Part shown: one piece after another, positions 10,229 through 33,634 of the stretch | Layout of the letters: each line of letters opens with the position of its first letter | Numbering within the stretch: position 1 is the stretch's first letter | Virus record (IMG/VR): IMGVR_UViG_3300011412_000006 | Location: 1 to 38,223 of that record | Reading direction: 5' to 3' (one strand) | Length of the DNA: 38,223 nt | Source of the DNA: a virus | Taxonomy: Duplodnaviria; Caudoviricetes | Position numbers and translations under genes: made by a program | Notes under the pieces: model-generated | Told to the model about the DNA's origin: nothing | The model's input: only the letters and a program-made list of their open reading frames with translations | Database searches by the model: none

Positions 10229-11161
10229 ATGCCAAGAAATATACCCGCAGCACTGGTAACGCACATCAATCAGGGCGGGACGTCTCTTTGTGAGCTCATA
10301 AAGATCACGCCCACCGTGGGTGCTGTGCTTGCCTTTACTGATCACATTCAGAACCTGACAGTCGATGGGCAGTTGTACTTATCACGACCGGGAATGCGCG
10401 TGAGTGAGGTCAAGTCCGGACTCAAGATGGAGATTGACACGAGTCAGGCACAGGGCTTCTTTCAGACTGGTGTGATCACGCTTGCCGACATTCTCAAGGG
10501 CAAGTTCAGAGATGCAATCTTCGAGAGAAGGTTTGCTAATTACGATTCACCATCAAGCGGTGGCTACACGTATCAGTCAGGGCAAATCGGGCGTGTTGAT
10601 GTAGCTGACAACTCATTCACTGTTGAATTGCGTGGGTTGATTCAGAAGTTGTCGCAACCAGTCGGTCGAGTCACATCAAGGATGTGTGATGTGCAGCGCG
10701 TAGGTGATGCAAGGTGCAAGTTCAATCTCGCAACTACGCATTACATTGACGGAACGCCATTCACGCAAACTCTGACAGTGAGCGCAGTATTTAGTGCAAA
10801 TGTCTTCGAGGTCTCGTCAGGCTACAACGTCTCATATTCTGAGAGTTGGTTTGAGGGCGGCTATCTGACATGGAACAGTGGCAACAATGCAGGCTATACC
10901 GCAGACATTGCGAGATCGCTGATTCAGTCACCGCCTACTACGCTTGAGTTCACATTGATGATGCAACCGGGAGCAGATATTCAGATTGGTGACACATTCA
11001 CTGCGACTGCCGGATGTGATCGATTCGCAACCACATGTCAAAACAAGTTTCGCAATGCATCACAGCCGAATGGCAATTTAGTCAACTTTCGCGGCTATCC
11101 TGATCTCGCAGGCGCAATCATCTATAAGGCAGCAGATGGAATCATCGCATCAGGCGGATAG
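10229..11161 (+). CDS. DUF2163/TIGR02218 (BR0599-like) tail hub protein
   Basis: FTDH, C...GDARC, GCDR...TC..KF.N...NFRGYP motifs. Confidence 0.9.
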   Translation: MPRNIPAALVTHINQGGTSLCELIKITPTVGAVLAFTDHIQNLTVDGQLYLSRPGMRVSEVKSGLKMEIDTSQAQGFFQTGVITLADILKGKFRDAIFERRFANYDSPSSGGYTYQSGQIGRVDVADNSFTVELRGLIQKLSQPVGRVTSRMCDVQRVGDARCKFNLATTHYIDGTPFTQTLTVSAVFSANVFEVSSGYNVSYSESWFEGGYLTWNSGNNAGYTADIARSLIQSPPTTLEFTLMMQPGADIQIGDTFTATAGCDRFATTCQNKFRNASQPNGNLVNFRGYPDLAGAIIYKAADGIIASGG

Positions 11162-17785: not shown

Positions 17786-17815
17786 TTTACATCTCGTTTA
17801 ACATTGTTATATAGT
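17786..17815 (+). promoter_or_regulatory. Sigma70-type promoter of the RHH gene with a variant operator
   Basis: TTTACA-N18-TATAGT; contains TTTAAC-ATT-GTTATA; ATG 17823 is 7 nt after the -10 box (leaderless geometry). Confidence 0.65.
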
Positions 17816-17822
17816 GATGACT

Positions 17823-18029
17823 ATGAAACCTGAGAAAGTGAAGACGGATTTCGTGGCCTTCCGACTCGATGCTGATCTGCATCAGAAGTTGAAGGCACAG
17901 GCACGCGGACTGAGAGTCTCAAAATCCTTCCTGATGAAGCAGTATCTTCTCAGAGGGATGGGCTTTTCTACTCCGCTTATCAGTTCTAAACCCTTACAAT
18001 CAAAGACTTTAAAAGAAATACAAGAATAG
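17823..18029 (+). CDS. Ribbon-helix-helix (Arc/CopG-like) DNA-binding regulator
   Basis: FVAFRLDADLHQKLKAQARGLRVSKSFLMKQYL: alternating beta strand followed by two helices with the S.S turn. Confidence 0.75.
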   Translation: MKPEKVKTDFVAFRLDADLHQKLKAQARGLRVSKSFLMKQYLLRGMGFSTPLISSKPLQSKTLKEIQE

Positions 18030-18042
18030 TTGTATTTTTATC

Positions 18043-18072
18043 TTGACTTGTTTAACAAAGTTAAACTATAAT
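18043..18072 (+). promoter_or_regulatory. Strong early sigma70-type promoter P1 with palindromic operator
   Basis: TTGACT-N18-TATAAT; spacer holds the perfect inverted repeat GTTTAAC-AAA-GTTAAAC. Confidence 0.85.
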
Positions 18073-19477: not shown

Positions 19478-19506
19478 TTGACTTGTTTAACAAAGTTAAA
19501 TATAAT
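19478..19506 (+). promoter_or_regulatory. Strong early sigma70-type promoter P2 with the same operator
   Basis: TTGACT-N17-TATAAT; spacer TGTTTAACAAAGTTAAA; AT-rich upstream element. Confidence 0.88.
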
Positions 19507-20953: not shown

Positions 20954-21159
20954 GCATCAAGGGACTCGACAGATGGCTGACGACACAACCAGAGTCACCT
21001 GAGTTCTGGATTGAGCTCACTGGCGATGCTGAATGTAATCAATGCGGCAGAATGATGCGTGATGGCGCAACCGTACTTGTAGATGAGAACGATCATCTTT
21101 GGTGCAGTGATCAGTGCTTGACAAACTGGCAGGAGGCACGAGACGACGATGAATTATGA
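20950..21159 (+). CDS. Small zinc-finger protein
   Basis: CNQC...CSDQC; GGAGG RBS. Confidence 0.7.
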   Translation: MSIKGLDRWLTTQPESPEFWIELTGDAECNQCGRMMRDGATVLVDENDHLWCSDQCLTNWQEARDDDEL

Positions 21160-21364
21160 AGTCATACAACACGCCGACAACCTGAGTCAGTATTACGTGC
21201 AGAATAAGGTCACAGGGCGCATCGTCGTCAACCACGTCTCATATCAGCAGGCACGAGAGACTGCCGAAGCACTTGAGTTCACGCGTCTGTTGCATCTCTC
21301 AGAGCAATACACCAAAGACGAATGGCCAAAGGAAATCAACGTAGACACGAAAGGGACACAATGA
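21149..21364 (+). CDS. Hypothetical early protein
   Basis: Overlap-coupled ORF in the operon. Confidence 0.65.
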   Translation: MNYEVIQHADNLSQYYVQNKVTGRIVVNHVSYQQARETAEALEFTRLLHLSEQYTKDEWPKEINVDTKGTQ

Positions 21365-22149
21365 ACAACAACACTGAACTTGCTACAACTGAACCAACCG
21401 CAGCTGCACTTGAACGAGTGCTCATTAAAGGCGACATCGGTAAACTCTCAGACGAACAGAAAATTTTCTACTATCGCGCAGTGTGTGAGTCAGTCGGGTT
21501 GAACCCGCTGACGCAGCCATTCAATTATCTGGTGCTCAAAGGCAAGACGGTTCTATACGCCAACAAAGCCTGCACTGACCAGTTGAGAACGAATCATAAA
21601 ATCAGCATCTATCAACTCGACACCAAAACCGAGGACGGCATCTATCAAGTCACTGCATATGCACGCAACGCCGAAGGGCGTGAGGATGCAGACCTCGGTG
21701 CAGTCAGCATTGCCAACCTCAAAGGTGAGGACTTGGCCAATGCCAAGATGAAAGCAACAACCAAAGCCAAACGTCGCGTCACATTGTCGATCTGCGGTCT
21801 TGGTATGCTCGATGAGACAGAAGTTGAATCCATCTCACAAGAGGACAGGCAGGCTCGTGCAGTTCAGGACTATATATCACCAGCTATGCCAGCCGAAAAT
21901 CGCGCTACGAGCCTCTCTGTGCAAGGAAAAGGTACTGGGAGCAAGGACAACATTGCGGCTATCGGTGAATTGATTCGAGACTTGAGGACTGCGGGAATCG
22001 AGATGCCGGTCATACAAGCGCGGATGAAGTCACTGACAGGATGCGAGAAGCGGTCAGAGTTGAATGATGGGCAGGCGGTAGTGGTGATTGAAGAATTTGA
22101 AAGCTGGTTGGATGTGCTTGACGATCCGTCTCTCGGAGGTGGTGCATGA
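21361..22149 (+). CDS. RecT/Red-beta-like single-strand annealing protein
   Basis: CESVGLNPL and MKATTKAKRRVTLSICGLGMLDETE motifs; ATG 21361 after GGGACAC. Confidence 0.75.
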   Translation: MNNNTELATTEPTAAALERVLIKGDIGKLSDEQKIFYYRAVCESVGLNPLTQPFNYLVLKGKTVLYANKACTDQLRTNHKISIYQLDTKTEDGIYQVTAYARNAEGREDADLGAVSIANLKGEDLANAKMKATTKAKRRVTLSICGLGMLDETEVESISQEDRQARAVQDYISPAMPAENRATSLSVQGKGTGSKDNIAAIGELIRDLRTAGIEMPVIQARMKSLTGCEKRSELNDGQAVVVIEEFESWLDVLDDPSLGGGA

Positions 22150-22942: not shown

Positions 22943-23410
22943 ATGAAGTACATATTTCTATTAGCTATGGCATTGCAGACACCTGTCACATTGCCGGAAC
23001 CAATCGTGACCAAACCTCAACTCGTCGAGAGCCAGCCACCAGCAGGCAACTATCGAGAAAAGACACAGGAAATGATTGAGTATGCAGAGGCGCAAAAGAA
23101 GCGTGATGCAATGACTGCACCAGAGCTCGCAACTGCATATCAAAAGTTCCTGAGTGAACTGATTCCCAGTTACAACTACATCGAAGCGAATCTGGTGAGA
23201 CGTCCTTATGGCGGTTCGTCGCTCGTTGGCTATCATCCGTTCTTCAACAAGTATGCATTCTCGACAGGTCCGTTTGTGAAGCACGTCGGACGATGGGTGC
23301 AGGAGCATTGCACTGCATTGAAGAATGGAAAGATCGGTGAAGTCGGTGTTGGTGGGTATTCGGACCGCCAGACTGAGACAGCTTTCAAGATGAAGACTGC
23401 GTGCCCGTAA
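22943..23410 (+). CDS. Hypothetical protein with signal-peptide-like N-terminus
   Basis: MKYIFLLAMALQ followed by a Pro-rich linker; two Cys. Confidence 0.6.
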   Translation: MKYIFLLAMALQTPVTLPEPIVTKPQLVESQPPAGNYREKTQEMIEYAEAQKKRDAMTAPELATAYQKFLSELIPSYNYIEANLVRRPYGGSSLVGYHPFFNKYAFSTGPFVKHVGRWVQEHCTALKNGKIGEVGVGGYSDRQTETAFKMKTACP

Positions 23411-23439
23411 TTTACAAATCAAGTGAAGTGATTTAGAGT
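23411..23439 (+). promoter_or_regulatory. Putative sigma70-type promoter P3
   Basis: TTTACA-N17-TAGAGT; predicted +1 near 23446. Confidence 0.5.
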
Positions 23440-23606
23440 GCTCTTGCCTTCGACAGAGGCATTGGAATTGAGGAACAGCAGACTCACGACGCCTTCTGGT
23501 TGAAGGCTCTTGACTCATCGATCAGTGGTGTTCTTTTCCGTCTGCATTCTCACACCTCGGATCGTCTGTCGGAGCAAGAGCTTTCAACGAGAGGGCGTTT
23601 TTATTT
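23440..23606 (+). ncRNA. Candidate structured leader RNA / attenuator with two alternative folds
   Basis: Helix A 23440-23457/23565-23581. Helix B 23489-23512/23575-23598 (24 positions, 2 G-U, 1 mismatch) followed by TTTTATTT. Confidence 0.6.
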
Positions 23607-23635
23607 CAAACCAACACAGGGACACAAGAAAACAC

Positions 23636-24709
23636 ATGAGGCTAAAATTGAAATATCTTGCACCGTCAGAACTTCGCGTTGATCCCAAAAACAAAGAATT
23701 GTTTGATGCATTGAACCCACAAGAACTAGACTTTCTCGCTCGTTCAATCGAGGAGCATGGTCTGATCAATCCAATAACAATCACTGAGGACTATCTGATC
23801 ATTGCAGGTGAGCAACGCTATAGGGCAGCGATGCAAATAGGGCTGGAACAGATTCCAGTAATCGTGCGCAAGCCGAAAGACGAACTTGAACTTGAGGAGA
23901 TTCGACTTGATGAAAATCTAGCGCGGCGATCAATTCCAACCTATACGCTGGCGAAGTGTTTGCAACGCAAGACAGAAATTAAGTTGAAACGGAACAGTTT
24001 TTGTAATGATTACAAAAAATCAAAGGGTGAGATTGACATTGAGATAGCAAGTGAAACGGGTTACACCACAACATCAATACAACATACTCGCGCACTCGCC
24101 AAACTCATTGACGATCTTGGTGAACTTCTAAACGAAAACCATTTCTCACGTGAAGCAGCATTGCAAATGGCGCAAATGCCAGAATCTGACCAGAAATGGT
24201 TATTGAGCCGGTTGTCTGCATCACGGTTGAAAGAAGTTCACAAAGATGAAATCAAGAATTTAAAAACCGAACTTACTAATGTTCGGGATACGAATGCGAA
24301 GTTGCAGGAGTTAATTGAATCTCGTGATCAAGAAACCGACAAAGTAATCAAAAAACGAATCGCGGCAGAGATCAAAGCAGCCCGTGACGATGTAGCAGAA
24401 GCTAAGAGATTAGCAGATGAACAGGTAATTGCGATTCGTGAGCAATACGAGAAACGAACAAAAGAACTTGACCGCAAATACCGAGACGACCAACGGCAAC
24501 CAATTAGCAGGTTTCTAGAAAAGGCAGTGCCATTATTGAATACCGATCCGGCAGACACTGCTAATAACTTCTTTTTAATTTCCTACGATCTGGCAGAAAT
24601 GGTATGCGAAAAGGCCGAAGCCTTATCGCCGTGGTTAATCTCGTTTGCCAAAGCACTTCGGGCTCGTGTTCGGAATGAGAGGCGAACCAATCTAAAAGGA
24701 GTCAAATGA
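23636..24709 (+). CDS. ParB/Srx N-terminal domain protein with HTH-like region and coiled coil
   Basis: SIEEHGLINPITI...IIAGEQRYRAA...IPVIVR...DENLARR; ATG 23636 after GGGACAC. Confidence 0.8.
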   Translation: MRLKLKYLAPSELRVDPKNKELFDALNPQELDFLARSIEEHGLINPITITEDYLIIAGEQRYRAAMQIGLEQIPVIVRKPKDELELEEIRLDENLARRSIPTYTLAKCLQRKTEIKLKRNSFCNDYKKSKGEIDIEIASETGYTTTSIQHTRALAKLIDDLGELLNENHFSREAALQMAQMPESDQKWLLSRLSASRLKEVHKDEIKNLKTELTNVRDTNAKLQELIESRDQETDKVIKKRIAAEIKAARDDVAEAKRLADEQVIAIREQYEKRTKELDRKYRDDQRQPISRFLEKAVPLLNTDPADTANNFFLISYDLAEMVCEKAEALSPWLISFAKALRARVRNERRTNLKGVK

Positions 24710-25206
24710 CACCCGCACAATCACTACACAAACAATTCACTCAAAGAGTTCTTGAATTAAAAAATCAAGGACTACAAGTTTCTGATATTTGCGACGACCC
24801 GGAAGTTGAACAACTTGGGTTGACGCTATGGGGATCCAAAGCTGTCAAGAAAATCATACAAATGGAAGTGCGCCGAGTAATACAAAACGACATTGATAAA
24901 GAAACCGGAGTTAGAAAATGGGTTTCCGTTCCTCAAGTTACTTTACCAATGCCACAAGCTAGTAAAGAACCACCAACACCTGCTGAATTGAGACAGCGTG
25001 AATATCTTCGAACCGTGACACTTGATCCGATCCGCGAGTTAATAACAGTTCAAGAATTGAGCAAAGCGATAAAAAGTCTTGTTCGAAAACGCGGAGTGCT
25101 TACTGAATACGAAGAACAATCCTTGTTCAAAGCAATCGACAAGGTATTCAAAACAGCAACCACCCGACTACAGCAAAGTAACGGATCAGATATCGTTGTT
25201 GACTAA
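24706..25206 (+). CDS. Hypothetical protein (AT-rich)
   Basis: AAGGAG RBS; ATGA overlap with the ParB-like gene. Confidence 0.72.
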   Translation: MTPAQSLHKQFTQRVLELKNQGLQVSDICDDPEVEQLGLTLWGSKAVKKIIQMEVRRVIQNDIDKETGVRKWVSVPQVTLPMPQASKEPPTPAELRQREYLRTVTLDPIRELITVQELSKAIKSLVRKRGVLTEYEEQSLFKAIDKVFKTATTRLQQSNGSDIVVD

Positions 25207-25211
25207 CTTGA

Positions 25212-25649
25212 ATGATAGACGAACGCACTAACTGGCGTGATGAAGCCCTGAGTGCAAGACATCGTACTTGGGGCTTCCACATTCCAATGTTTGATGTGGA
25301 CTTCCTTTGTGTTGAGTACTCGAAGCGAAAGCCAGTTGCATTGATTGAGTACAAACACGAGCGCGGATGGCTGGTCAGTCGAGGCAATGCGAATATGGAT
25401 GTGCTCATCAGTCTCGGCGATAATCACACGCCAGCACTGCCCGTTTTTGTGGTTCAGTATGCAGCGAAGTTGGATCAGTTCACCGTCATCCCAATGAACG
25501 CAGTCGCCCACGATTTAGTACGTGAGTCAACCTCGATGAATGAGCTCCAATATGTCGAGTTCCTGTATTCTCTGCGCCGGTCTACTATGCCGCCAGTAAT
25601 CAGGGATGAGATTTGCAAACGACAATATTCTAGACAGGTAACGTTCTGA
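25212..25649 (+). CDS. Putative PD-(D/E)XK nuclease-fold protein
   Basis: FDVDFL...ALIEYK motif. Confidence 0.55.
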   Translation: MIDERTNWRDEALSARHRTWGFHIPMFDVDFLCVEYSKRKPVALIEYKHERGWLVSRGNANMDVLISLGDNHTPALPVFVVQYAAKLDQFTVIPMNAVAHDLVRESTSMNELQYVEFLYSLRRSTMPPVIRDEICKRQYSRQVTF

Positions 25650-25687: not shown

Positions 25688-26593
25688 ATGTACGTGAAAC
25701 TATTTTCGAAAGTGCTCACTTCATCCATCTGGATGGAGGATGAATCAACACGAATTGTATGGATAACCCTTTTAGCTTTAATGGATAAAGATAGTTTCGT
25801 TGAGGTTGCATCGATTCCAAACCTTGCACATCAGGCGCGAGTCTCAAATGAAGCGTGTGAGCGTGCAGTTGGCATCCTCGAAGCACCTGACGCAAATTCA
25901 TCTGATCCTGACTTTGAAGGTCGTCGCATCGAACGAGTGCCGGGAGGCTGGCTCGTTCTAAATGCTGAGAAGTATAGGGAGATAGGATCACTTGAACACA
26001 AGCGCGCAAAGGGCAGAGAACGCGTCGCGAGATGGAAAGAGAAGCAGAAGAAAGGTAACGCTCAAAGCGTTAAAGGTAACGCAGAGCTAACGCATGGGTA
26101 CGCCATGCAGATACAGATACAGAAGAAGAATAAGAGTGTAGGAGTACAACCTAGTATTGAGAGTGATGGACCCGACAGAATTGCAAAGCCAATTCGTCGG
26201 GCACGCGCACAAATTCCCGATTCTGATTTTCTCAACGACCTGAAAACCAAAAGCGCCTATAGTGCGATCAACGTCACACTCGAACTTGAGAAAGCTGAAA
26301 CTTGGTGTGCTGCAAACCACCGGACTTGTACTCGAAGGTTCTTTGTCAACTGGCTGAATCGGGTTGAGAAACCACTGGCGATTCCCAAACCGCAATCTCG
26401 CGTTGGTGCTCAAGCCAAACCTGTCGCAGTCGAGAGTGATCGTGCTGACTCTGCGGAAATCATCTCAACGTGGAATGATCTCGCAGATGCAATGGGCGAA
26501 CCGCTTGAGAAGCTGGTGAAGAAAAGCGTGGCACTTGGACAACTCTCGAAGGATGATGCGCGAATGATACTCGGAGAACTAAATGCACAATGA
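25688..26593 (+). CDS. Phage replication initiator (lambda O / DnaD-like architecture)
   Basis: YVKLF..SSIW N-terminal winged-helix-type domain, RERVARWKEK, low-complexity linker carrying iterons, FFVNWLNR C-terminal motif. Confidence 0.75.
   Translation: MYVKLFSKVLTSSIWMEDESTRIVWITLLALMDKDSFVEVASIPNLAHQARVSNEACERAVGILEAPDANSSDPDFEGRRIERVPGGWLVLNAEKYREIGSLEHKRAKGRERVARWKEKQKKGNAQSVKGNAELTHGYAMQIQIQKKNKSVGVQPSIESDGPDRIAKPIRRARAQIPDSDFLNDLKTKSAYSAINVTLELEKAETWCAANHRTCTRRFFVNWLNRVEKPLAIPKPQSRVGAQAKPVAVESDRADSAEIISTWNDLADAMGEPLEKLVKKSVALGQLSKDDARMILGELNAQ
26051..26103. repeat. Iteron-like cluster (probable origin of replication)
   Basis: AAAGGTAACGC x2 (26051, 26072), inverted AGCGTTA (26066), CTAACGC (26087), GGTACGC (26097). 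Confidence 0.65.
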
Positions 26594-26891
26594 GGGAACA
26601 GAAGTGAGATCACTCACACTGAGACTCAACGACGTTGAGGTGATCTGTCTTGACGGCTGCTTTACACTGCGCACGATTGCCGGTGATGACGACACGACAT
26701 TGTGGGACAAGATCGAGGTCACCGCAGAATCATTCGCAGAGCTCGAAAACATCATCCGCAAACTCTACACACAACCCGAACTCGATGACGTTCTCAGCGT
26801 AGTGACCCGCATCAGGCACATCTGGGCTAACTGGAATCTTGATCCTGCTGAAGATTCTAAGTTGCCTGCAAGTCCAGAGATTCTAGAGTAG
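26583..26891 (+). CDS. Hypothetical protein
   Basis: GGAG RBS; overlaps the initiator stop. Confidence 0.65.
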   Translation: MHNEGTEVRSLTLRLNDVEVICLDGCFTLRTIAGDDDTTLWDKIEVTAESFAELENIIRKLYTQPELDDVLSVVTRIRHIWANWNLDPAEDSKLPASPEILE

Positions 26892-27312
26892 GCTGATAAA
26901 TAATTTTGCGATCTGTTTTGACGACGATAGCTAGAACATCAAACTTCAATCCGTCCTGCTCATTTTTAGGTGACACAATCTTTCCGGTTTGCGTGTAGTA
27001 TCCCGTCGTCACCTCAACACGCAGCAGACGTCGATCTGAGGTCAAGATTGCCAGATCACACTCACAAGAACCTGACAGAGCACGAAAGACTGCATAGCCT
27101 CGAAACATCAAATCCGCTGCAACGAACAGTTCATGTGCTGCACCTGTTGTCACAGTTGAAAGCTTAACAGACGTAGATGGATTCAAGATTTGAAACTGAC
27201 GACGTGCGTGTTCTCGGCTGCATTCGGCCTGACAGAACATAGCACCATGTCGTCGCCTGAGATTCCTAATGGGAGTCTGACAGACCACACAATTGTCAAA
27301 TAAGATTGTCAT
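26857..27312 (-). CDS. Zn-finger + PD-(D/E)XK homing-endonuclease-like protein
   Basis: CVVC...CQAEC; GAAHELFVAADL..RGYAVF...CDLAI...RVEV...FDVLAIV pattern; fills a gap in + strand coding. Confidence 0.7.
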   Translation of the reverse strand: MTILFDNCVVCQTPIRNLRRRHGAMFCQAECSREHARRQFQILNPSTSVKLSTVTTGAAHELFVAADLMFRGYAVFRALSGSCECDLAILTSDRRLLRVEVTTGYYTQTGKIVSPKNEQDGLKFDVLAIVVKTDRKIIYQPTLESLDLQAT

Positions 27313-27333
27313 AATCGCTATAATAAGCCTATT

Positions 27334-27846
27334 ATGGAACCCAGTCTAGTAACGAGTCAGGATATGCCCGAAAAACGCCCTAGAGCGTCTCCAAACGTCA
27401 AGAAACGGCATCTGGCGAGTCACTCACTGGTCGAATTTGCCACTGAGCGACAGATTCAGAACTCGATCTGTGAGATTCTGGACTACTTGAAACTGCCCTA
27501 TTCGATCACGGATGCATCACGCGTATATGGTGCTGATGGGCGGGTTAGGCGATCAAAGGTGGCAACTGGCTGGCCGGACATCACAGGGTGCTTAATGGCT
27601 GGGCGGTTCTTTTGCATTGAGGTCAAGAGAGCCAAAGGTAAACTATCAGCAGAGCAGAAAGAGACACTAGCGAGACTGAGAGAATGCAATGCGGCGGTCT
27701 GCGTAGCATACTCGGTCGACGATGCAGTTAATTTTCTCTACACAGAGGGAGACTTGACATGGCAACAGCAATCTTTCCTGTCGCGCTTATCATCATCGGC
27801 GGAGCACTCTACTTCGTCTCAGCGAATCCAAAGATCCAAGAAATAG
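27334..27846 (+). CDS. VRR-NUC domain nuclease (putative resolvase)
   Basis: ERQIQ, GWPDI, IEVKR..GKLSAEQ, VAYSVDDA motifs. Confidence 0.88.
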   Translation: MEPSLVTSQDMPEKRPRASPNVKKRHLASHSLVEFATERQIQNSICEILDYLKLPYSITDASRVYGADGRVRRSKVATGWPDITGCLMAGRFFCIEVKRAKGKLSAEQKETLARLRECNAAVCVAYSVDDAVNFLYTEGDLTWQQQSFLSRLSSSAEHSTSSQRIQRSKK

Positions 27847-28021: not shown

Positions 28022-28227
28022 TGACACACACAGAGAAAGACACTGAGCAGGAAATTCTCGACGCGCATCGACTGATACGCGAAGCAACAGACGCGATTCA
28101 ATCACTTGAGCTCTCAGTGCGATCTGAGTTGCACACCTTGAGAGAATCACTTCTCAACCTCGGTGCTGCGTTACTTGCCATCTCACGCAAGATTGATGAC
28201 GAGCGACGCGAACGCCTGAGAGGTTGA
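28021..28227 (+). CDS. Small coiled-coil hypothetical protein
   Basis: Coupled start; last gene before the terminator. Confidence 0.62.
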   Translation: MTHTEKDTEQEILDAHRLIREATDAIQSLELSVRSELHTLRESLLNLGAALLAISRKIDDERRERLRG

Positions 28228-28278
28228 CTGTAGTGCTATAGTTGAAACTTCAAGATAGTATGTTGGGGCAACAGCGAG

Positions 28279-28316
28279 AGCCCGGACACAAAATATTGTG
28301 TTCGGGCTTTTGTTTT
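28279..28316 (+). terminator. Intrinsic terminator closing the early/middle region
   Basis: AGCCCGGACACAA-aata-TTGTGTTCGGGCT followed by TTTGTTTT. Confidence 0.85.
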
Positions 28317-28349
28317 GTGGTATATGTTCCCGTCTGTTCGACAATTGCT

Positions 28350-28396
28350 CTGCAGTGAGCATTGGTTTAAGGAGGAAGGATCGGTGTTCACTGCAG
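28350..28396 (+). promoter_or_regulatory. 19-bp RNA hairpin with AAGGAGGAA loop in the late-operon leader
   Basis: 28350-28368 pairs with 28378-28396: 13 Watson-Crick + 6 G-U pairs, no mismatch on the + strand. Confidence 0.6.
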
Positions 28397-28427
28397 TTGC
28401 AACCAACCCTCCGAGGCATAGAGTCAA

Positions 28428-28826
28428 ATGGCATCCGCATTCTACGCAACCTACAAGACGATTCTCTTGACGACTGGTGGCATCAATCTGCTGACTGACA
28501 CGATCAAAGCGCAACTGGTCGATGCTGCAGACTACACACCTAATCTCGCAACCGACAATTTCCTGAACGATATTCCGGCACTGGCACGCGTTGGCACTGC
28601 ACAAACTCTTGCCAGCAAGACAGTCGTCGGCAATGTTTTTGATGCTGCTGATCTGTCATACACAGCTGTCACAGGCGATGGCACTGAGCACGTTGCAATC
28701 TTCAAGGACACTGGCGTTGAGTCAACGTCAAATCTGATCGCGCTTATCGATGGCGCAGTCACACCAACAGGCGTCGATATAACTCTTGTGTGGGATAACG
28801 GTCCAAATAAAATCTTCGCACTCTGA
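28428..28826 (+). CDS. Virion structural protein (fiber-associated minor protein)
   Basis: DTIKAQLV, VFDAADL, GVDITLVW..KIFAL pattern typical of phage minor structural proteins. Confidence 0.7.
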   Translation: MASAFYATYKTILLTTGGINLLTDTIKAQLVDAADYTPNLATDNFLNDIPALARVGTAQTLASKTVVGNVFDAADLSYTAVTGDGTEHVAIFKDTGVESTSNLIALIDGAVTPTGVDITLVWDNGPNKIFAL

Positions 28827-33229: not shown

Positions 33230-33634
33230 ATGGCGAAAGGACGTAAGACAGGTGGACGACCAACCAAACTCACGCCTGAGATTCAAGAGAAGATCGTTCA
33301 GGTCATACGCGCTGGCAATTATGCAGAGGTTGCAGCAGCTTATGCCGGTATCTCCAACAAAACATTCTATCTTTGGAAGCAAAAGGGCGAAGATCAACCG
33401 GATAGTGCTTATGGTGAGTTCTTACACGCTATTAAAAAGGCTGAGGCCGATAGCGAAGCAGAAGCCGTTGCGCAGATTAAACTGGCGGCTCGCGATCCAA
33501 AGAACTGGGTGGCTGGTATGACGTGGCTTGAGAGACGTTATCAGAAGCGTTGGTCACGTACTGACAGACAGGAGCACAGTGGCGAAGTAAAGATCGTGAT
33601 GGTAGATGAGACAAGCGACAAAGAAACAGACTGA
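33230..33634 (+). CDS. terS: Terminase small subunit (HTH type)
   Basis: GRPTKLTPE, AAAYAGIS..TFYLW, WLERRY; directly before TerL. Confidence 0.8.
   Translation: MAKGRKTGGRPTKLTPEIQEKIVQVIRAGNYAEVAAAYAGISNKTFYLWKQKGEDQPDSAYGEFLHAIKKAEADSEAEAVAQIKLAARDPKNWVAGMTWLERRYQKRWSRTDRQEHSGEVKIVMVDETSDKETD

Follow-up and report, generated by a model that had tools for sequence, protein, structure and literature searches.

Two mutually exclusive RNA folds form a candidate transcription attenuator ahead of putative phage replication genes

Introduction

Why would the leader RNA of a phage encode two long folds that cannot exist together, and what would decide between them? These questions are raised by a ~160-nt non-coding leader (the element) in a 225-nt gap (23411-23635) of the viral record IMGVR_UViG_3300011412_000006, of which the whole 38,223 nucleotides were analyzed and are referred to here as the window. 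The element has an early operon on one side and a gene for a ParB-N-domain protein on the other. A preliminary description, made from the letters of the window, had proposed that the RNA senses where its transcription started: RNA from a local promoter would lack most of the competing 5' arm and terminate, whereas RNA from the early promoters would form a helix A, escape a terminator-like helix B and continue into the replication genes. To our knowledge, RNA attenuators ahead of replication genes come almost entirely from a few enterobacterial phages and Gram-positive plasmids. Our comparative and folding analyses indicate that the element is probably a transcription attenuator of a putative replication operon, and point to a different trigger.

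Results

Two folds and their conservation in a second phage

Both helices, the U tract and the promoter-like site were located by the sequence and a pair listing where the preliminary description had placed them, and the length of the gap and the make-up of helix B (Table 1) were as it had reported; hairpin H1, the inner helix of fold B and the 7-nt bulge of fold B had escaped it. Fold A (23440-23581) had a predicted energy of -62.9 kcal/mol (z -5.34) and fold B (23489-23606) one of -54.4 kcal/mol (z -6.52), and in neither case was any of 200 shuffles as stable. For both folds the + strand of the window was more stable than the - strand by ~11 kcal/mol. Contigs from three of four other runs (X4, X5 and X6) covered the element mostly or partly with no letter differences, and X7 stopped short; since these contigs agree letter for letter, the DNA of the element is not an assembly artifact.

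A homolog of the element was identified at positions 2233-2421 of the phage contig L119 (nhmmer E 4.5e-10), which was found among 33 terminase-derived loci and was the only one of them with the element and with matches to early or replication genes. The L119 element begins 28 nt past a stop codon and ends ~45 nt ahead of a gene whose homolog in the window is the putative replication initiator (Table 1). No ParB gene is present there, so the link to ParB drawn in the preliminary description is incidental. The two elements are 60% identical, comparable to the flanking Gp157 and initiator genes (60% and 64%), and the spacer behind the U tract is 35% identical.

Conservation of fold B was scored on a MAFFT alignment (A7), with sliding of the pairing partners as the control. 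Over 26 pairs, 51 of 52 cells were paired and six pairs had changed on both sides, compared to 37-52% paired and 0-1 double-changed pairs in the slid controls. Of 200,000 trials in which the 15 observed changes were placed at random, 21 kept B as well as observed; restricted to its base (18 pairable positions), the count was 1,925 of 200,000. All five pairs of the inner B helix were kept, three of them through compensatory changes. In helix B of L119 the G.G mismatch and the U tract were retained and one pair had become U.U. The non-Watson-Crick positions in this helix were G-U (two in the window, three in L119), G.G or U.U, never A.C, and fold B was ~10 kcal/mol better on the + strand in both phages.

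The helices of fold A were also kept. The four pairs of the outer stem of H1 were identical in L119, the nine pairs of P1 were all retained, one through a compensatory change (H1 loop against bulge), and the six pairs of P3 were all retained, two through compensatory changes, in a register chosen by structure. P2 has five pairs in the window and seven in L119. For P1 and P3 together, 357 of 200,000 random trials were as good. Because compensatory changes have kept helix B, the inner helix of fold B and core A, it is very likely that the two incompatible folds have both been selected as RNA. In this one homolog, then, the covariation supports the proposal that the replication genes are preceded by a two-state RNA whose B fold resembles a terminator.

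Some details of the folds differ between the phages. Of the two features that had been placed inside helix A, GCAGAC/GTCTGC (P3) was recovered, whereas the hairpin H2 was not predicted there in the window (probability 0.01), the interior of fold A being instead GACGCC/GGUGUU with CUGGUUGA/UCGAUCAG; in L119 the interior is H2 (probability 1.00). It had also been suggested that each arm of helix B folds into its own hairpin. This was borne out for the 5' arm, in which the stem of H2 is invariant and 16 of 17 nt are identical, H1 being a hairpin of similar sequence. The local hairpin of the 3' arm, however, is weak in the window (-6.6 kcal/mol, z -2.2) and does not form in L119 (z +1.08), which leaves B as the only conserved terminator-capable stem beside the U tract.

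No leader peptide was apparent: the three-frame translations of both phages had no common start and no common frame beyond the invariant hairpins, and the two frames found in both (AFWLKAL, whose Trp codon lies in the H2 loop, and PSG-stop) were set aside, as neither their starts nor the remainder of either frame was shared. In L119, an 11-codon ORF absent from the window begins directly after the upstream stop and ends in H1.

The promoter match of the window was one of 14 such sites in 10 kb, compared to 10.4 +/- 2.7 in shuffles, so that the match taken alone is weak evidence. In L119, a -10-like TATATT, read by eye and not listed by the promoter scan, ends 8 nt before H1 (7 nt in the window).

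Table 1. Features of the element and of its neighboring genes in the window.
Feature	Coordinates	Strand	Remarks
Promoter match TTTACA-17-TAGAGT, sigma-70-like	23411..23439	+	9/12 consensus; +1 would be near G23446
6-bp inverted repeat in promoter spacer, possible operator	23416..23434	.	Only exact copy in window; L119 has a different inverted repeat there
Outer helix A, 5' strand	23440..23447	+	8 bp with 23574-23581; window-specific, not kept in L119; needs upstream-started RNA
Hairpin H1	23446..23460	+	z -3.4; starts at predicted +1; loop region 23449-23457 is the P1 5' strand
P1 (inner A)	23449-57/23565-73	+	9 bp, one G-U
Linker	23470..23483	+	P2 5' strand GAGGA (pairs with 23547-51) and P3 5' strand GCAGAC; core of fold A
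P3, GCAGAC/GTCTGC	23478-83/23540-45	+	From pair listing
Helix B, 5' arm	23489..23512	+	Contains H2 (23491-23507), which hides the 5' arm in fold A
Fold B interior	23514..23574	+	Inner helices 23519-23/23560-64 and 23527-31/23552-56
Apical loop (20 nt)	23532-23551	+	Predicted single-stranded in B; complementary to linker; opening cost 0.1-0.3 kcal/mol
7-nt bulge	23565-23571	+	Predicted single-stranded in B; complementary to H1 loop; opening cost 0.1-0.3 kcal/mol
Helix B, 3' arm, predicted long-range terminator stem	23575..23598	+	21 Watson-Crick + 2 G-U + 1 G.G with 23489-23512
U tract TTTTTATTT, predicted termination point	23598..23606	+	Tract also in L119
ParB-N-domain protein	23636..24709	+	PF02195, E 5e-14; first gene 3' of element in window; missing at same place in L119
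Replication-initiator-like gene	25688..26593	+	Label from model features only; homolog is first gene after element in L119

Order and energetics of folding

For window RNA that includes full-length B, G(A)-G(B) was +5.7 kcal/mol from a start at 23446, +0.9 from 23440 and 0 to -1.6 from starts further upstream, and B at 23596 had a probability of 0.99 when RNA started at 23446 and of 0.00-0.23 when it started upstream. The idea that a duplicated GCUCUUG drives the competition of A and B therefore works on paper in the window, where six extra 5' bases shift the balance 5-7 kcal/mol towards A. It does not extend to L119: the 7-mer is single, with no second toehold upstream, sequence upstream tends to lengthen H1, and G(A)-G(B) was +6.7 kcal/mol from H1 and +4.8 to +8.6 from upstream starts.

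The predicted order of folding was similar in the two phages. The 3' strand of P3 is complete 11 nt ahead of the point at which a B-specific helix can first close, and core A was dominant until the last 2-8 nt of the 3' arm of B in the window and the last 8-13 nt in L119. This held for both window 5' ends, with a probability of at least 0.97 up to 23590 for the 23446 start. H1 and P1 were near balance in L119 (P1 0.45-0.84 when RNA starts at H1 or 2 nt ahead of it). In both phages the finished leader has its lowest energy as fold B, and the barrier from A to B was 35-48 kcal/mol in a nested model, an upper bound, compared to 2-7.5 kcal/mol from a state in which the linker is open. Since A forms first and is separated from B by such a barrier, A is predicted to be a kinetic trap, and something would have to bind the 5' strands early for termination to occur. 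The short RNA would thus not simply fall into B, and as core A comes first from either window start and L119 shows no effect of the 5' end, start-site sensing was not upheld as the core mechanism.

The apical loop and bulge are the regions of B that would be free to bind those strands. Opening them in B costs 0.1-1.0 kcal/mol over both phages, and opening the nascent side costs ~1-4 kcal/mol, once 8.9. The bulge can form seven of seven pairs with the H1 loop and the apical loop 11-13 pairs with the linker in both phages, and the predicted duplexes (apical loop-linker/bulge-H1 loop) have energies of -12.4/-9.0 kcal/mol in the window and -18.4/-8.2 kcal/mol in L119. With either target blocked, the probability of B 4 nt short of its end increased from 0.00 to 0.96-0.99, and did so even in the long window RNA. 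As P3 and B should exclude each other in one molecule (5-6 nt would have to span ~35 bp), the apical loop-linker pairing would be either an alternative fold or intermolecular. The next ribosome-binding site is covered by neither fold, so control by the element would act on transcription.

Discussion

A leader that would be flipped by its own product

We propose that the trigger of the attenuator is quite possibly its own B-form RNA acting in trans, an assignment that we make tentatively. It starts from the two conserved structures, a fold A consisting of a P1-P3 rod around H2 and a fold B consisting of a 24-27-bp helix, an inner helix and the U tract. During transcription H1 and H2 are predicted to form first, after which P3, P2 and P1 would close the rod and bury the 5' arm of B at its tip; with A trapped, the polymerase would pass the U tract, and read-through would be the default. 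Leaders that have terminated or refolded would then pile up as B rods, B being the most stable fold of the finished leader, and each rod would leave open its apical loop, which complements the linker, and its 7-nt bulge, which complements the H1 loop. Such a B RNA may pair with the linker and H1 loop of a nascent leader before their own partners exist. The rod could then not close, B would zip up from the GCUCUUG toehold and transcription would stop at the U tract. The expected outcome is a burst of replication-gene transcription followed by a self-imposed shut-off, and possibly the exclusion of a second phage. In the window only, the outer helix A would make termination of RNA from the early promoters more difficult, as a local tuning and not as the core of the mechanism. 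The covarying inner helix of B, which is ~27 bp from the U tract and has three of five pairs changed, suits an RNA with a life after termination.

A number of points weigh against this proposal. The comparative claims come from two sequences, the window and L119; P1 alone was not significant (11,125 of 200,000 random trials as good), and the register of P3 was picked by structure and is off in the MAFFT alignment. The barriers were calculated from pseudoknot-free paths and ignore pseudoknotted strand invasion. In L119 the equilibrium favored B already 8 nt before its end without a blocker (0.94 for short RNA, 0.52 for long), so read-through there would rest on kinetics alone, and L119 has no -35 at the position of the window promoter. 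A stem that encloses a 60-nt insert is not typical of intrinsic terminators. The display of complements of A strands in B partly follows from the existence of A, a full-length B RNA includes the very targets it would bind and might mask itself (the H1 loop and bulge are reachable in cis), and copies of B RNA could pair with each other. A second target like the seqC of phage P4 was not found, in that an exact complement of the bulge is absent between the element and the next gene in both phages; in the window this exact 7-mer complement occurs at 20967, 23451, 26173 and 27448. Finally, a resident state that would need immunity is unproven, as no integrase was found among the window ORFs scanned with Pfam/PHROG-type profile searches.

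Alternative explanations

The conserved hairpins could instead be read by a protein or small ligand that sets the attenuator through H1, H2 or the junction of fold A, as in a riboswitch or antiterminator. The near-identity of H2, the likeness of H1 and the retained G.G would suit sequence-specific recognition, and the authors of the pLS20 work suggest that a protein binds the small 5' hairpin of their attenuator (PMC13401043). However, the invariance of H2 is explained as well by its double duty in H2 and B, there was no Rfam match, and the annotated ORFs, among many that are unannotated, include no candidate RNA-binding protein, so we regard such a reader as unlikely. Start-site sensing is distinctly unlikely as the main mechanism. 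It draws on the window energetics given above, on two strong early promoters with a common operator-like motif upstream, and on a precedent in P4, where promoter-dependent read-through is described as operating via eta translation (PMC10111431). L119 even has a promoter-like site, TTGACA-17-AAGAAT (10/12), that begins inside H1; RNA started from it would be missing H1, P2 and part of P3. But its -10 lacks the first T, it is one of seven matches where 6.0 +/- 2.3 are expected, and it has no window counterpart, and neither the GCUCUUG duplication nor the 5'-end effect is present in L119.

It is improbable that the element simply gives rise to a stable small RNA (the B rod) that has a target or job of its own, with A as a protective intermediate and the replication genes expressed by leak or protein antitermination. 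That B is the finished fold in both phages and covaries throughout, and that H1 begins at the predicted +1, would be expected of such an RNA, but the A helices covary too and are placed where they block B, nothing other than the replication operon follows, and past the U tract the only promoter-like match overlaps the ParB start in the window, with none in L119. An antisense RNA from the opposite strand, as in pT181 or pIP501, would fit the geometry of a block on H1 and the linker, yet it is very improbable: no - strand promoter at 9/12 was found over the element in either phage (by a sigma-70 consensus, which the host may not use), the weak - strand candidates lie at non-homologous places, and no opposite-strand promoter conserved in both phages was found. 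Also in its favor is a GC-rich hairpin (-12.7) at the upstream stop codon of L119 (2207-2228), which with its U run reads as a terminator on the - strand and of which the window has no counterpart (z +0.13). Lastly, H1, H2 and the 3' arm of B resemble one imperfect palindrome, and the H1/H2 motif is rare elsewhere in both genomes, as might be expected of a DNA element (operators, a cruciform or mobile-element ends). We consider this extremely improbable, in view of the RNA-like departures from pairing in helix B, the better fold of the + strand and the presence of a U tract on one side only.

Comparison with known systems

In the pT181, pIP501 and pAM-beta-1 plasmid systems, alternative antiterminator and terminator folds before a replication gene are flipped by an RNA that binds the nascent leader, the counter-transcript coming from the opposite strand. 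These antisense attenuators are named in PMC2879508. The element resembles them in having predicted, covarying and exclusive folds before a gene to which a replication role is assigned by model, but it has no conserved counter-transcript promoter, and the - strand terminator-like hairpin is restricted to L119.

The CI RNA of phage P4 presents its antisense in a bulge and a loop, and its relatives include P1 C4 and N15 CA, with C4 and IsrK as Rfam families. Published reports describe P4 immunity as a short leader RNA that ends transcription of the replication operon early by pairing with the same leader (PMC4825925, PMC10111431, PMC3632133), and state that CI RNA and IsrK act in trans on the leader of their own operon (PMC4825925). 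The element is alike in that its antisense segments lie inside the leader and complement an upstream site of the same transcript, as seqA does. It differs in having upstream targets only, with no seqC-like site behind, in having as its terminator a long-range intrinsic stem inside the same RNA, and in the absence of a small ORF of the kil/icd/eta (Bro network) type coupled to termination, ParB-like or initiator-like genes following instead. Moreover, the trans step was demonstrated in P4, whereas for the element it is our reading of the folds. IsrK, of the Salmonella prophage Gifsy-1, is reported in the same source to have two alternative folds of similar energy and to activate orf45-anrP translation, its short form acting in trans on a longer transcript of its own locus in competition with the cis pairing of that transcript (PMC4825925). 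In contrast, the predicted effect of the element is termination.

The zipper attenuator cATT of pLS20, as described in PMC13401043, has a weak 5' hairpin (-6.4 kcal/mol) that zips onto a long imperfect stem, with antitermination as the default; an oligonucleotide block of the 5' segment gave >90% termination, and the natural trigger is given as unknown. Similarly, H1 of the element (-6.3 kcal/mol) converts to P1 on top of P2 and P3. The terminator of cATT is a local hairpin, and its 5' stem pairs with the small hairpin, whereas the conserved stem of the element is long-range, with its 5' arm in the tip of the rod and its partner 60 nt away, so that exclusion would be mostly topological. The cATT also precedes conAn1 and a conjugation operon and not a putative phage replication region. 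By analogy, the element would work like P4 immunity and have a fold logic like that of the pLS20 zipper, and it belongs to none of the P4, IsrK and zipper families because it has no Rfam match, downstream target, coupled ORF or local terminator hairpin.

The build of the element is unusual in that the 5' arm of the terminator lies in the tip of the antiterminator rod, the stem encloses ~60 nt, and the terminated fold shows the complements of the 5' strands of A. It bears on two questions, namely whether termination is possible with 60 nt inserted in the stem and whether the outcome can depend on six 5' bases. Should the trans step be true, the element would be an independent route to a P4-style self-made immunity RNA, in a phage in which no integrase was found, and a compact, protein-free part for negative feedback. 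In its fullest form the proposal is a one-part RNA timer and immunity switch, with antiterminator, long-range terminator and antisense in one 160-nt leader that needs no counter-promoter, peptide or protein, and to which the six-base extension of the window, present only in read-through RNA, adds promoter dependence; as a whole this is somewhat unlikely.

Searches for further copies

No Rfam family was matched: the whole window had no match at the gathering score, and at E up to 10 positions 23300-23750 had one, to a microRNA model (20.8 bits against a cut-off of 79). The element did not match the C4 or IsrK covariance models or known riboswitch or T-box aptamer families. Likenesses to CRISPR repeats, IS200/605 ends, retrons and boxB were set aside, with no Rfam match and no reverse transcriptase (RT), Cas protein or transposase among the ORFs scanned; one weak HTH_Tnp_1 match, below the cut-off, lies at 33230-33634.

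In 91 sources, a covariance model built from the two sequences recovered nothing beyond those two copies and their echoes on the - strand. It had no match in 151 genomes of the phylum of genome G007 or in 33 virus records, blanks that say little since the host was not identified. DNA-pattern searches of viral contigs yielded no homologous stretch among 61 and among 40, and a third yielded one among 83, that of L119. Likewise, scans around initiator homologs (53 viral and two genome loci) showed the element in the L119 contig only. Six full- or near-full-length ParB homologs were found at 42-69% identity, and more at lower identity. Scans based on ParB found no relative in viral contigs or genomes, and metagenomes returned only the record of the window itself. 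In a wider ParB alignment none of 12 loci had the element, and in the three best (28-35% identity) ParB abuts the upstream gene. Within the lengths searched, the 155-aa upstream and 166-aa downstream proteins matched only themselves. GenBank phages and plasmids, searched with BLAST, showed at most short chance matches, and no description of the element was found in the literature, the supplements of RNA-motif surveys, which could hold one, being outside the scope of that search.

The outline of helix B, set as 24 nt with 21 or more pairs, an insert of 35-120 nt and a U tract, was found only in the window, its L119 homolog and one unrelated locus when 868,756 bases were scanned on both strands. 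The latter, at ~10459-10553 (-) of the phage contig L138, carries a helix of 24 bp around 45-47 nt, then a U run, a ribosome-binding site and a start codon, and so shows this long-range-terminator outline in another sequence. Four contigs with the H2-toehold pattern (L075, L082, L093 and L094, actinophage-like or other) were set aside as they do not align with the element. These phage or prophage contigs have in common, at ~1450-1620, a structured-looking non-coding stretch with an H2-like hairpin pattern and no Rfam match at the gathering score.

Genomic setting and neighboring genes

The window is a complete circular phage genome of 38.1 kb with a 123-nt terminal repeat and a gene set that includes head, tail, terminase and portal genes. 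Among metagenome runs, the best sources of its DNA were sediment and groundwater, and none of the 19 listed runs was an RNA run. The initiator-like gene follows the ParB-N gene ~2 kb later and is 56% identical to its L119 homolog over 138 aa. It had no Pfam or PHROG match at E 0.01, and its ESM Atlas look-alikes (0.94-0.95) include DnaT and Phage_rep_org_N clusters, the top two being unnamed; on these model features it is a putative replisome-organizer/DnaT-like replication initiator. Between the element and this gene, positions 23636-25649 hold the ParB-N gene, a 166-aa orphan and a 145-aa gene, none of which is at that place in L119, a pattern suggesting that the block was gained or lost behind the switch.

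A small ribbon-helix-helix (RHH)-like ORF (17820-18029; RHH_1 E 0.045, below the Pfam cut-off, with CopG-like look-alikes) lies ahead of the two strong early promoters. The motif GTTTAACAWWGTTA occurs exactly at 17796, 18050 and 19485, that is, in the promoter-like region of this ORF and at both early promoters, and with up to two mismatches it had six matches compared to 0.54 expected. The ORF and the motif sites (17787-18070 and 19478-19506) are likely a repressor-operator set, here in a phage in which no integrase was found.

Another strongly folded intergenic stretch (28225-28430, z -6.58) lies between small holin-like genes and the next operon. It contains two hairpins, one of ~21 bp with a U-rich run at its end and one of ~19-23 bp, and had no match in the L119 contig or the other loci scanned. 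Behind the initiator region, the sole likely - strand gene (26857-27312) encodes a PD-(D/E)XK-like nuclease, below the Pfam cut-off, which was not seen at that place in L119; divergent promoter-like sites lie at 27277-27360. A 275-aa gene (21322-22149) had no Pfam or PHROG match and is putatively recombinase-like, in part from its position; genes in two Campylobacter phage records match its N-terminal half at 58% identity.

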